Positions 27,620 through 53,148 of a stretch of DNA of 64,000 bases are shown here, piece by piece; within the stretch, counting starts at the first letter, position 1, and every line of letters starts with the position of its first letter. The notes under the pieces are model-generated. The model worked only from the letters and a program-made list of their open reading frames with translations, made no database searches and was not told the origin of the DNA. Source of the stretch: Tagaea sp. (GTDB taxonomy: Bacteria; Pseudomonadota; Alphaproteobacteria; CACIAM-22H2); contig CBDIIB010000005.1 in assembly GCA_965279525.1 (NCBI GenBank), positions 1,440,001-1,504,000 on the forward strand. The letters are read 5' to 3'. The translations under genes were made by a program, and so were the position numbers.

Positions 27620-27705
27620 GCCCCAGTGGCGAAACGGTAGACGCGGCAGACTCAAAATCTGTTGCCCGCAAGGGCATGTTGGTTCAAGTCCGACCTGGGG
27701 CACCA
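27620..27705 (+). tRNA. tRNA-Leu (anticodon CAA)
   Basis: Acceptor stem GCCCCAG/CTGGGGC, anticodon arm GCAGA-CT-CAA-AA-TCTGT, long variable arm GCCCGCAAGGGC, T-loop GTTCAAG and encoded CCA. Confidence 0.96.
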
Positions 27706-49965: not shown

Positions 49966-51228
49966 CTAGCGGCGCGGGACGCGGGCTTTCTTCGGTTTCG
50001 TGAACGTCGCGACCAGTTCGAGGTGGCCGGTCCACAGGAACTGGTCCACGGGGACCACGCGCGCCAGCGTATAGCCGCCATCCACCAGCACGCGCGCGTC
50101 GCGCGCGAAGCTCGCCGGATTGCACGACACCGCCACGACGACGGGCACCGACGAGGCGGCCAGATACGTCGCCTGTTCGCGCGCACCCTCGCGCGGCGGA
50201 TCGAAGATCGCCGCGTCGTATTCGTCGAGCTCTTCCACCAGCAGCGGCCGGCGTTCGAGATCGCGCGCCTCGCACGTCACGCGGCCCGCGCGGAAGCCGG
50301 CGCGGGCCCCGGCCTGCATGGCGGCACTGGCGGCGGCATCGCCCTCGACCGCGTGCACGCGACCGGTGAGCGGGAACGAGAACGTGCCGAGCCCGGCATA
50401 GAGATCGACGATGCGCTTGGCGCGGCCGACCGAGGCCGCGATCTCCGACGCGATCGCAAGCTCGGCGGGGCGCGCGGCCTGCAGGAAGGCGCCGGGTGGC
50501 GGCACCACTTCGACCGTGCCGAACGACACGCGCGGGCTTTCGTGCAGCACGACGATTTCGGGTTCCTCGCCCGTCTCGCGCCGCCAGGCGATGCGCACGA
50601 TGCCGTTGGCTGCGGCGAAGTCGGCGAGCGAGGCGCGCTTGCGCGCGTCGGGGCTGCGCCCGGTGAGCAAGAGGTCGATGCCGTTGTCGGCGGCCGTCAC
50701 GTGGATGTCGAAGGTTTCGGCGGGGCGCAGGAAATCGACAAGGAACGCGCGCAGTGCCGGCAGCAGCGACACGATCTTCGGCAGCAGCACGAGACACGAA
50801 TCGATGTCGACGAGTTCGGTGCTTCCCTCGGTGTGGAAGCCGAGCGTCACGCCGCCTTGCGTGCGCAGGGCCGAAAGCTCCGCGCGCCGGCGTGTACCAC
50901 CGGCGATGCGCAGCATCGGCGCGGGTGCGATGTCGAGACCGCGCGCGGACAGCGCCGCGACGAGCAGCCCCTGCTTCCACGCGACGTAAGAGGCTTCGGC
51001 CAGATGCTGCACGGCGCAGCCGCCGCACGCATGGAAATGCGGGCACGGCGGATCGACGCGGTCGGGCGCCTTGGTCAGGATCTCGACCGCGCGCGCGCGG
51101 TCCTTGCCGAAGCGCTGCGCGCGCACGCGCTCGCCGGGCAGGGCGCCGGGCACGAAAAGCGGGCCGTCGGCGACGCCGTCGCCGCTTGCGCCCAGCTTGC
51201 GGATTTCAAGTTCGACCGTTTCTTCCAT
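49966..51228 (-). CDS. rlmD: RNA (uracil-C5)-methyltransferase, RlmD/TrmA family
   Basis: Fe-S motif CPHFHACGGC, FLQ, DLYAGLGTF, DPPREG, VSCNP and DQF...HLE. Confidence 0.88.
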   Translation of the reverse strand: MEETVELEIRKLGASGDGVADGPLFVPGALPGERVRAQRFGKDRARAVEILTKAPDRVDPPCPHFHACGGCAVQHLAEASYVAWKQGLLVAALSARGLDIAPAPMLRIAGGTRRRAELSALRTQGGVTLGFHTEGSTELVDIDSCLVLLPKIVSLLPALRAFLVDFLRPAETFDIHVTAADNGIDLLLTGRSPDARKRASLADFAAANGIVRIAWRRETGEEPEIVVLHESPRVSFGTVEVVPPPGAFLQAARPAELAIASEIAASVGRAKRIVDLYAGLGTFSFPLTGRVHAVEGDAAASAAMQAGARAGFRAGRVTCEARDLERRPLLVEELDEYDAAIFDPPREGAREQATYLAASSVPVVVAVSCNPASFARDARVLVDGGYTLARVVPVDQFLWTGHLELVATFTKPKKARVPRR

Positions 51229-51565
51229 GGGGGGCGAGGTGTAGCCGCGATCCGGGCGGCGGCGAAGCGAAACCTCTGCCGGCCCCGGGACTTGACAGGT
51301 TTTGCCCGGCGGCCCCGGTTTTGCCGCGACCCGACCGCGTCCCGGCCGGCCGAGGGCGGATTACCAAATGAAATCAATGGCCGACGCGATGGGATGGGAA
51401 AGGCGACTCGGCCCCCGACGCGAGGCCGCGACCCCGAGCCATTTCCCTCAACCTATTGAAATAACTTGGAATACCAAATTTCCCAAAATCCGATTGGCGG
51501 GGGGGGAGGGGGCGTGTTACGCAAAAACCGTCAGGAAAGCGAAGTCTTCATAGCCTTCGCGCCGT

Positions 51566-51735
51566 GTTGTCCGGGCGGGACATCAGGCTCCGACGTGCCG
51601 ATGGGGTGCCGGCGGTCTTCGCGAGGGGGCCGTCGGCACCACCTCGCCCCAAATCCACAAAAAATCTCCCAAAAATGAAGAGGCGCCAGGGGCGATCTTG
51701 CGATCGGCCGTTGTCCGGGCGGGACAAAGGGCTCC
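51566..51735. repeat. 26-nt imperfect direct repeat containing a hairpin (51566-51591 and 51710-51735)
   Basis: GTTGTCCGGGCGGGACA-tca-GGCTCC versus GTTGTCCGGGCGGGACA-aag-GGCTCC (23/26 identical). Confidence 0.85.
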
Positions 51736-52490
51736 CTGACGCCTCGCGAGGACCGTCGAAGCGGGCGTGCACGCCGCGCATCCGACACCACCGACACCCC
51801 GCTCTCGCGGACCGCCGGCCGCCCCATGGCAGCCAAAAACCCGGGTCTTCCCTCGGGGGGCCTGCTTCGCACGTCCGGTCAGGCCCTGGTCCGCCCGATT
51901 CCGTCCGCGTCCCCCCGACGAGGGCTCCGGCGGCCACGCGCGGCCATCCAGAACCCGAACCCGAGACGTCCGACCCTTGCCTGCAAACGCGGTCCCAGAC
52001 CTGACCCGGGCCTCGCGCGAGCTTCGATCGACGGCGCTTTGAGCACCTGCCTTTCGTGCCTCGCAGCCGGTCCGCCGGTCGCGGGTTCCTGAACCCCTGT
52101 GGTCCGCCCCGCCGTCACCGCCGTACCCGCCGATCCCTTGCGGGACCCTCGTGACCCCGACCGTCGGCCTGGATCCCCGCGCCCGCGCGGATCCGTCGAC
52201 GCCGTCCCTTCCCGCTGCACCGGCCTGTCCCCAGGGGAACCGGCCGGCCGTCTTGAAGGGAATGGAGTTGCCACCTTCCGCCCGGCTTGCGCCGTGCTTC
52301 CGGCGACCGCTCCGGCGCAACGCCCCGACCCCGTCCTTCCCGCGCCGCCACCCTTTCGGGGCCGGCTCCTGCCAGTGGATCGCGTCCTAGCTACCGGACA
52401 CGCTGGAGAAGGATCGCTGCCGTCTTGTCGCGCCTCGCTTTCGCTTACCGGAAACGATGGTCTCAAAGCCGCGCATCGCCGCCAATCCCA
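51672..52490 (-). ncRNA. Candidate large structured non-coding RNA (~800 nt), family unknown
   Basis: No credible ORF. The minus strand is G-rich with several GNRA-capped hairpins and helices that need G.U pairs on that strand only. A 12-bp closing helix is followed by a U-run. The 5' end is approximate. Confidence 0.55.
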
Positions 52491-52508
52491 ATCGCCCGCG
52501 CACGGTCA

Positions 52509-52575
52509 GAATCTTGTTGATGGAATCCCGCGTTGATCACAATCCACACACAGGCGATCCACAGGTCTGTCCACA
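52509..52575. promoter_or_regulatory. Cluster of DnaA-box-like 9-mers and GANTC sites
   Basis: CAATCCACA (52540), CGATCCACA (52555) and CTGTCCACA (52567) in the same orientation. GAATC at 52509 and 52523. Confidence 0.45.
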
Positions 52576-52728
52576 GCGTTTTGTTCGCAGCCGCGGTAAG
52601 CTTCTCGCCCGACGCGCCAAACCCATCAATTGACGCGCCGGTATGCAGGGTCTAAATCCTTAAGCCTGCCGGGAAGAATTGCGAAGGCCGTCGAATACCG
52701 GCCACGCAATCAGGAAGACCGAGGGGCC

Positions 52729-53148
52729 ATGGCCGCAGAATCCAAGAGTTCCGCCAAACCGCATCCGCGACCGCTATCGCCGCACCTGCAGGTCTACCGC
52801 CCGCAGATGACGTCGATCCTGTCGATCACCCACCGCGCCACCGGCGTGGCGCTGGCGGTCGGCACGCTGATGCTGACGTGCTGGCTGGTCGCCGCGGCGA
52901 CGGGCGAAACGCCCTTCGCGCGCGTCAACGCGTTCCTAGGATCGGGCATCGGCATGGTGCTGCTGTTCGGCTGGTCGGTGGCGCTTTTTTATCACCTCGC
53001 CAACGGCATCCGGCACCTGTTCTGGGATGCGGGCTACGGCTTCGACCTGCCGACGATGGAAAAATCGGGCTGGGCCGTAATCGCGTTCACGGCCGCCGCG
53101 ACGATCCTCGCCTGGGCGCTGGGCCTTGCCGTGCTGGGAGGGCGCTAG
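52729..53148 (+). CDS. sdhC: Succinate dehydrogenase cytochrome b556 subunit
   Basis: RPLSPHLQVY, SITHRATG and HLANGIRHLFWD. Confidence 0.96.
   Translation: MAAESKSSAKPHPRPLSPHLQVYRPQMTSILSITHRATGVALAVGTLMLTCWLVAAATGETPFARVNAFLGSGIGMVLLFGWSVALFYHLANGIRHLFWDAGYGFDLPTMEKSGWAVIAFTAAATILAWALGLAVLGGR

Follow-up and report, generated by a model that had tools for sequence, protein, structure and literature searches.

Bacterial RNAs of more than 500 nucleotides (nt) with dense conserved structure are rare. Those that are understood are ribozymes, ribonucleoprotein cores or, as has been reported of GOLLD, ROOL and OLE, RNA-only assemblies (PMC12286853, PMC3413148). OLE, GOLLD and ROOL are described there as large ornate bacterial non-coding RNAs (ncRNAs) and have the Rfam entries RF01071, RF01998 and RF03087, respectively. 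CcnA, a cell-cycle ncRNA of Caulobacter, is reported to have a gene that is tied to replication-control DNA elements (PMC8959179); it alone turned up in a literature search on DnaA boxes combined with ncRNAs. Here, we focus on the 1503-nt gap between rlmD and sdhC in Tagaea sp., which lies in a window of 64,000 nt (assembly GCA_965279525.1, contig CBDIIB010000005.1, positions 1,440,001 to 1,504,000; this is the whole stretch that was analysed, and coordinates below are those of the window unless a contig is named). The analysis shows that the minus strand of the gap holds, at about 52476-51672, a single-copy gene for a structured ncRNA of about 0.8 kilobases (kb), termed module 1, which belongs to an undescribed family found in three families of Alphaproteobacteria; we place the probability of this reading at roughly 85%. 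A first-pass annotation of the window, made from the letters alone, had suggested a large minus-strand structured ncRNA of a family it did not recognise, and the suggestion is supported by the asymmetry of folding, by covariation and by the lack of an Rfam match. The unit is wider than had been noted, and takes in an operator and promoter zone upstream and a second small RNA, module 2, downstream.

Fold, strand and covariation of module 1

Module 1 is about 805 nt long (51672-52476, minus strand), with its 3′ end at a U-run and a probable 5′ end at ~52476. The extent originally given, 51672-52490, agrees with this at its 3′ end near 51672 and probably not at its 5′ end. When the minus strand of 52490-51672 is folded as RNA it reaches -452.1 kcal/mol (z -3.79), and none of 20 dinucleotide shuffles folds as well; the plus strand of the same stretch has a z-score of +1.43, with 19 of 20 shuffles as good. 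Folding thus goes beyond chance, because the minus strand beats its shuffles and the plus strand does not. Base pairing points to the same strand. Among the 3343 cells of the alignment of 23 Tagaea-genus sequences there are 331 G.U against 27 A.C combinations, and in two other sequence sets the counts are 201 against 32 and 185 against 31, while the consensus energy of the Tagaea-genus alignment is -156 kcal/mol compared with -105 for its reverse complement; the RNA strand is therefore the minus strand. This strand had been called G-rich at the outset, and the GC skew of the plus strand is indeed about -0.19 over 51800-52499 (-0.18 to -0.22 in each 200-nt segment). The module 1 stretch occurs once in its own genome.

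Covariation, one of the checks that the first-pass annotation had put forward, proved strong in three separate sets of sequences. Set 1 comprises 23 Tagaea-genus sequences, of which 17 come from species genomes and 6 from contigs of metagenomes, set 2 comprises 8 sequences from 7 other genera of the family, and set 3 comprises 11 sequences from two other families. Consensus structures were derived from MAFFT alignments with RNAalifold, and each was compared with a slid control in which the 3′ partners were shifted by 1-3 columns. The 146 consensus pairs of set 1 are formed in 96.9% of cells, against 34.1-47.8% in the slid control, and changes on both sides are seen in 46 pairs (10-16 slid) and 255 cells (19-60 slid). 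For set 2 the figures are 172 pairs, 88.8% of cells paired (37-51% slid) and 72 double-change pairs (23-37 slid); for set 3 they are 118 pairs, 91.8% (41-50% slid) and 51 double-change pairs (18-30 slid).

The conserved architecture begins with a 5′ hairpin cluster (52344-52402, minus strand), made up of the helix CGUGUCC/GGACGCG (52402-52396 with 52387-52381), the hairpin UCC-ACUGGCA-GGA (52379-52367), whose loop is invariant, and a GAAA-capped helix (52366-52344, minus strand) that includes CCCC-GAAA-GGGU (52361-52350). Within this cluster, double changes are found in 4 pairs of helix 130-138/143-153 and in 2 of the 3 pairs of helix 117-119/127-129. The hairpin CGGC-GCAA-GCCG (52294-52283) stands between the cluster and a central domain (51966-52202, minus strand), which is closed by a long-range pairing of GCGUC (52202-52198) with GACGU (51970-51966) and which contains, on the same strand, the hairpin GGUCCC-GCAA-GGGAUC (52147-52132) and the helix 52064-52051/52030-52017. 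The closing pairing covaries, one position being GC in 15 sequences and AU in 8, another UA in 19 and CG in 4. For this domain, helix 9 has double changes in 2 of 5 pairs, with 100% of cells paired, and helix 14 in 4 of 6. Next comes a 3′ central domain (51813-51972, minus strand), on which covariance model R1 was built; here CUCGGG (51965-51960) pairs with CCCGGG (51845-51840) around three nested helices, followed by a hairpin at 51834-51817. Also in this domain, GGGUUCU (51956-51950) pairs with GAGCCC (51927-51922) around a GCGCG-capped hairpin.

The GNRA-capped hairpins that had been read from the letters, the fourth being CGAUC-GCAA-GAUCG (51706-51693), are all present where they had been placed, and compensatory changes are seen among relatives in the helices noted, CGUGUCC/GGACGCG and GGGUUCU/GAGCCC included, with the exception of the two invariant ones. 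One proposed element did not survive the comparison: the long-range pairing of GACGGCG (52206-52200) with CGCCGUC (52036-52030) is complementary in the window's own clade only and is lost in the two other Tagaea clades, and CGCC (52036-52033) pairs locally with GGUG (52047-52044).

At its 3′ end, module 1 forms a three-way junction with a U-run (51671-51745, minus strand). The junction is closed by the 12-base-pair (bp) helix P1, 51745-51734 with 51691-51680, and the U-run UUCAUUUUU (51679-51671, minus strand) lies directly 3′ of it, as had been noted. Enclosed by P1 are hairpin A (GCC..UUGUCC-CGCCC-GGACAA..GGC, 51732-51707, minus strand) and hairpin B, the CGAUC-GCAA-GAUCG hairpin already named (minus strand). 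The GC-rich 12-bp helix followed by UUCAUUUUU is conserved in all sets, the stem closing a junction and not a simple loop, and we infer that P1 and the U-run act as an intrinsic terminator. The junction helices have no double changes in any of the three sequence sets, whereas the rest of the RNA covaries, and the exact word with hairpin A is present in three families. Because its sequence is invariant across these families while every other helix drifts and compensates, the junction most probably serves as a handle that a protein or ligand recognises by sequence.

Distribution, module 2 and presence in RNA libraries

BLAST with the gap as query gave a match in all 20 genomes examined from the same genus and in none of 20 from outside it. 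Model R1 detects one copy in the own genome and matches 18 of 20 other Tagaea-genus genomes; it found no module 1 in 29 genomes from 14 other genera of the family, which reflects a miss by the model under strict filters and not absence, because searches by position and with the junction word subsequently recovered diverged homologues. Right after module 1 in the window lies module 2, a conserved small RNA some 165 nt long (51482-51648, minus strand), which combines a junction with a long hairpin at its 5′ end, a C-rich tail and AUUUUGGG. Covariance model R2, built on module 2, matches the window at 51488-51645 (expectation value (E) 7.7e-49), 19 of 20 other Tagaea-genus genomes and 10 of the 29 genomes from other genera, in 7 of the 14 genera. 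Among the latter 10 loci, 8 have sdhC within the stretch fetched, 5 have the match 1.1-1.25 kb from a divergent sdhC with a gap poor in open reading frames (ORFs) between them, and 8 also carry a diverged module 1 of 614-688 nt with the same junction and U-run end.

Beyond the family, the exact junction word was sought in 400 genomes across the class. It gave 7 matches, which account for every sampled genome of three families, namely the own family (2 of 2), a second (3 of 3) and a third (2 of 2), while the reversed pattern, used as a control, gave none in the same genomes. Looked at more closely, 7 of 11 genomes of the second family and 6 of 13 of the third carry the word, with one copy each. 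The RNA of these two families is ~0.55-0.65 kb long, and an inner word, CCGGGCGGNAGG, was seen by eye to be common to all three families. As genomes were sampled and the searches used exact words, this distribution represents lower bounds.

Several further matches were set aside. A sample of 400 genomes across the phylum gave one more junction-word match, judged to be chance, as the junction did not close. Model R2, run on 150 genomes of other families, gave matches at E 0.0016 and 0.0068 that were judged false (coding-like DNA with no motif and no sdhC). Pattern matches in two Bacillota and Actinomycetota records of metagenome-assembled genomes were also attributed to chance, as were those in 23 of 34 metagenome contigs, which have no BLAST likeness to module 1; 22 of those 23 contigs were compared with R1, and none scored better than E 0.4.

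The junction of module 2 aligns with that of module 1, the words GGAGCC..UGUCCCGCCCGGACAAC being common to both, and by this alignment the two junctions are paralogous. Mean identity of module 2 over 19 genomes is 83%. Its consensus is paired in 92.9% of cells (35-46% slid), and its covariation is weak, with 5 double-change pairs, a count reached by 51 of 500 shuffles. The two modules are separable, because module 2 exists without module 1 and because insertions of ~600 nt part them in two Tagaea-genus genomes. Module 2 lies on its own ~210 nt from sdhC in two Tagaea-genus genomes (94% and 96% complete) that lack module 1.

Some smaller features of module 2 and its surroundings were also observed. 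One 5′ word can pair with either of two near-identical words, CCGGCACC and UCGGCAC, both of which show a C-to-A change in one and the same clade. In other clades a G/C hairpin takes the place of the C-rich tail. A pairing of this tail with the ribosome site of sdhC was considered and dropped, since it amounted to 6 bp by eye and the tail is not conserved in other clades. In the two genomes with ~600-nt insertions (L021:800-1500 and L036:480-700), the last hairpin and the 3′ strand of the junction occur a second time, in partial form, just before module 2, as though the insertion had duplicated the terminator end. In one genus (L100:2900-3000), four tandem copies of a ~27-nt word (AAAACCCAGTCCGGGTTCTG...) stand between the U-run of the large RNA and module 2.

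Part of the module 1 stretch is contained in 14 sequencing runs recorded as RNA. Contigs were mapped from three of these RNA runs, which come from three studies (bioreactor, mine drainage and sediment), together with one run that is probably DNA. One RNA-library contig is complete at 717 nt, and the others end at 52416-52427 and at 51706, the latter being a position at which the alignment has an indel (insertion or deletion) and at which branching of an assembly graph would be expected. In two RNA runs the depth is zero on 51100-51648 and on 52442-52900, whereas the probable DNA run continues through; the RNA-library contigs give no cover of 52428-52476, of 51672-51705 or of any part of module 2. 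The module 1 sequence is present in RNA libraries without its flanks, and its occurrence in libraries from a bioreactor, mine drainage and sediment suggests natural production at levels sufficient for assembly.

Further elements of the gap and its borders may be mentioned here. The gene rlmD (49966-51228, minus strand) has a Pfam match of the TrmA/RlmD methyltransferase type (E 1.3e-6), and sdhC (52732-53148, plus strand) has an Sdh_cyt match (E 1.9e-36). A likely sdhC promoter is seen at 52620-52660 on the plus strand, with TTGACG (the complement of conserved CGTCAATTG) and TAAAT (the complement of GGATTTAGACC); both words are kept across loci that include the sdhC end of the gap. A third conserved block lies 3′ of module 2 at 51330-51400, and reads CCGAGUCGC ... 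CGCGUCGGCCAUUGAUUU on the minus strand; it is present in all Tagaea-genus loci, whatever the identity of the next gene, and a related word, CGCGUCGNUGGCGGAAAAC, is found in several other genera. The stretch 51293-51337 (minus strand) resembles the Rfam COG3860 motif below threshold (14.3 bits and E 3, where the gathering score is 42.5) and contains AAACCUGUCAAG, a word conserved across Tagaea-genus loci.

Upstream words and alternative explanations

A putative promoter zone for module 1 (52483-52521, minus strand) consists of conserved blocks. It contains the conserved word ATCAACAAG (52521-52513, minus strand) and a weak candidate pair, a -35-like TTCTGA (52511-52506) and a -10-like GGATTG (52488-52483), with a 17-nt spacer on the same strand; other genera have CTTGKY-N17-TATTGY at this position. 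On its 5′ side lie three TGTGGA words (52575-52570, 52563-52558 and 52548-52543, minus strand), which resemble degenerate DnaA boxes. The DnaA-box consensus is TTATCCACA, and each of the three words is 2 mismatches away from it. All 16 Tagaea-genus loci with the whole gap and module 1 retain the words, and of the two loci without module 1 one has them in decayed form and the other lacks them; this pattern ties them to the RNA and not to sdhC.

The resemblance is closer in more distant relatives. A box zone of 550 nt was defined as 1000 to 450 nt before the junction, and expected numbers were taken from the rest of the same loci. Outside Tagaea, the zone contains a box with no more than 1 mismatch to TTATCCACA in all 20 loci (0.05 expected per zone) and a perfect TGTGGATAA in 14 of 20 (0.014 expected per zone); in 14 of 20, a reverse box is followed 40-52 nt further downstream by a box-like word in forward orientation. 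For Tagaea the corresponding numbers are 4 of 15 loci with a box within 1 mismatch and 0 of 15 with a perfect box. Control of module 1 by DnaA is suggested by these words, and we hold it tentatively, at rather less than even odds.

Conservation of DnaA-box words in three families is also what would be expected if the locus mattered as DNA, either as a site that binds or titrates DnaA or as an R-loop-prone G-rich element (datA/DARS-like or origin-like), the RNA being a by-product. The RNA strand is G-rich, and the junction stems are kept as sequence and not just as pairs, as a DNA site would be. However, dozens of helices maintain pairing through double changes, with G.U far above A.C, which only selection on a folded RNA explains; moreover, the locus (1.4917 Mb) is away from the origin and the best cluster of loose boxes is elsewhere, so that we regard a DNA element as very improbable. 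A role as oriC itself was rejected: cumulative GC skew reaches its bottom at 0.9-1.3 Mb, and hemE (1.231 Mb) and dnaA (0.763 Mb; contig positions) also exclude it. The genome's densest cluster of loose DnaA boxes, five within 220 bp at up to 2 mismatches, is on contig 5 near 1177075, at the flat bottom of cumulative GC skew and 54 kb from hemE, and is a candidate for the real origin.

It is equally improbable that the RNA acts in cis, as the 5′ untranslated region of rlmD or as a long leader that is processed to release module 2. In the window and in close kin, rlmD does lie downstream in the same orientation, and in the family module 2 comes within some 25-200 nt after module 1. However, a constant downstream gene in the same orientation, by which a cis-regulatory leader would be recognised, is not found, as the 3′ neighbour may be rlmD, a convergent gene or an unrelated one: rlmD holds this place in close kin only, and far Tagaea kin and other genera have a convergent gene there. 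In the two other families module 1 lies away from sdhC, with no sdhC near it and no module 2 within 3 kb. The terminator-like helix and U-run close module 1 in all sets, and the ~600-nt insertions and the persistence of module 2 without module 1 also count against a common precursor. Because the downstream gene varies, sdhC is not nearby in two families and each module exists alone, we infer that module 1 is its own transcription unit.

In size and helix-rich build, module 1 resembles an ORF-less group II intron, and it could stem from a mobile ribozyme or retroelement that has decayed or lacks an ORF, such as an intron of group II or group I, a retron or the guide RNA that serves a transposon nuclease. 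This origin is less probable still. Neither an intron model nor any other Rfam model gives a match at E<=10, a carrier genome has a single copy, the locus is syntenic beside sdhC across the family, the gap has no ORF for a reverse transcriptase or nuclease, and module 1 appears to have its own promoter zone and a terminator-like end.

The Rfam searches bear on novelty as well. Over the whole window, the single match to Rfam 15 at gathering score is a transfer RNA at 27620, and on the gap at E<=10 there are just two chance-level matches, of 15.4 and 14.3 bits, so that the gap has no family at either level, as the first-pass annotation had anticipated. No relevant match was found on 10 loci of the own family, and none on 6 loci from the two other families. 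Module 1 matches none of the Rfam 15 models for OLE, GOLLD, ROOL, HEARO, raiA, 6S RNA, transfer-messenger RNA (tmRNA), signal recognition particle RNA or riboswitches, and the RNase P RNA (RF00010, contig 5:36880-37269, 293.7 bits) and 6S RNA of the own genome are elsewhere. A truncated alpha-tmRNA match of 24.5 bits, below cut-off, is seen at the very start of the contig (contig 5:1-45), and the tmRNA gene probably spans a contig break. In the literature, no paper on Tagaea RNAs was found, and the 13-nt hairpin word occurred in no paper; the main text of two genome-wide screens for structured intergenic RNAs makes no mention of sdhC or of names beginning Rhodospirill, and their supplements may hold motif lists. 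Since it has neither an Rfam 15 family nor a description in the literature, module 1 is treated as an undescribed RNA family, and by covariance models, the sole test applied, it is outside the known large-RNA families.

A protein-coding gene or pseudogene of odd composition is a very remote alternative. There are stop-free minus-strand stretches of 195-245 codons, as expected at 73% G+C (G+C across the rlmD-sdhC gap is 56-74%), but the longest open stretch switches frame and strand between species, and no reading frame of the gap has the excess of G+C at third over second codon positions (GC3 over GC2) that marks the flanking genes. Variable columns show no 3-periodicity (0.646/0.653/0.667 by position mod 3), and indels ignore triplets, those divisible by three numbering 0 of 6, 0 of 15, 3 of 27, 1 of 27, 1 of 25 and 1 of 15 against six relatives. 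Five ORFs of the gap have no Pfam family. Module 1 is non-coding, and the check for a coding signal leaves the original suggestion intact. Finally, DNA of high GC content folds well without any selection, but an explanation by random hairpins in such intergenic DNA has a negligible probability and is already refuted, as shuffles fold worse on one strand only and conservation and covariation occur in three sets.

Proposed function and comparison with known RNAs

The single-copy structured ncRNA that we favour can be given a tentative mechanism. Transcription would start at the promoter near 52511-52483, just downstream of the words of DnaA-box type, and would stop at the P1 helix and U-run of the junction (51691-51671). 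The folded RNA would then act in trans as a stable RNA-protein or RNA-only machine, as scaffold or ribozyme, and not as a base-pairing regulator or mRNA leader; its size and density of helices place it with the class of large ribozymes and ribonucleoproteins rather than with base-pairing regulators. Whether module 1 is such a trans-acting machine we rate as an even chance. The invariant junction would bind a protein or ligand, and module 2, through its paralogous junction, would share that partner. The DnaA-box words suggest that the output of RNA follows the state of the replication initiator.

Taken together, these steps form a joint reading in which DnaA would set the synthesis of a large ornate RNA of a new class, roughly 0.55-0.8 kb long and present in three or more families of Alphaproteobacteria, and the junction would serve as a sensor or dock for a protein or ligand. 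A ribozyme or self-assembling machine would thereby couple the state of replication or growth to another process, and module 2 would be a competitor or partner for the junction factor. This reading is speculative, and we consider it unlikely to hold as a whole.

Several points weigh against the account given here. No partner protein, ligand or catalytic motif was found for module 1. The covariation score was reached by 0 of 500 shuffles in each of the three sets, but alignment rows are related, so that the shuffle control overstates significance and the slid control is the fairer one; the MAFFT and RNAalifold consensus is incomplete in variable parts, and several predicted long-range helices are not the same in all three sets. 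Simple scans find neither a sigma-70 promoter nor a terminator site, so both ends of the transcription unit are putative. The RNA-library contigs cover 51706-52427 only and, being contigs, give neither strand, ends nor level. In the own genome there is no box within 1 mismatch of TTATCCACA, and DnaA control here is therefore an extrapolation from relatives. Lastly, as two Tagaea-genus genomes lack module 1, it is dispensable there.

Those same two genomes are natural knock-outs, and they add to the experimental handles that the locus offers: a defined gene with a likely promoter and terminator, an invariant junction that can be used as bait, and a paralogous small RNA. The conserved DnaA-box words amount to a testable regulatory input. 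The comparative support for module 1 is unusually strong, with three sequence sets that each covary, and each new class of large structured RNA has opened new biochemistry.

Module 1 may be compared with four kinds of described RNA. It is like the smtA motif in being an orphan, long, GC-rich structured intergenic region without cis-regulatory logic; the text of the paper that describes the motif (PMC11109978) makes no mention of sdhC, succinate dehydrogenase, names beginning Rhodospirill or Alphaproteobacteria. RNase P RNA (RF00010) and group II introns (RF00029) share with module 1 the size class, a multi-domain build, long-range closing helices and GNRA loops. Module 1 is nevertheless no member of the former, the genome's genuine RF00010 match being elsewhere, and unlike the latter it has no model match at E<=10, no exons, no intron ORF and one copy. 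CcnA is small and base-pairs with the ctrA and gcrA mRNAs. It resembles module 1 as an alphaproteobacterial ncRNA whose gene is tied to replication-control DNA elements; in contrast to CcnA, with its gene at the origin, module 1 is 0.55-0.8 kb long, highly structured, off-origin and without evident target pairing.

The likeness to OLE, GOLLD and ROOL is a loose one overall, and consists in a length of ~0.6-0.8 kb, a large number of helices that covary and are capped by GNRA or UUCG loops, a non-coding nature and occurrence in RNA libraries of environmental samples. Module 1 differs from them in matching none of their Rfam models and in its host range of three families of Alphaproteobacteria. 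It is further set apart as a single-copy, syntenic chromosomal gene with DnaA-box words upstream, an invariant junction-type 3′ end and a small paralogous RNA alongside.

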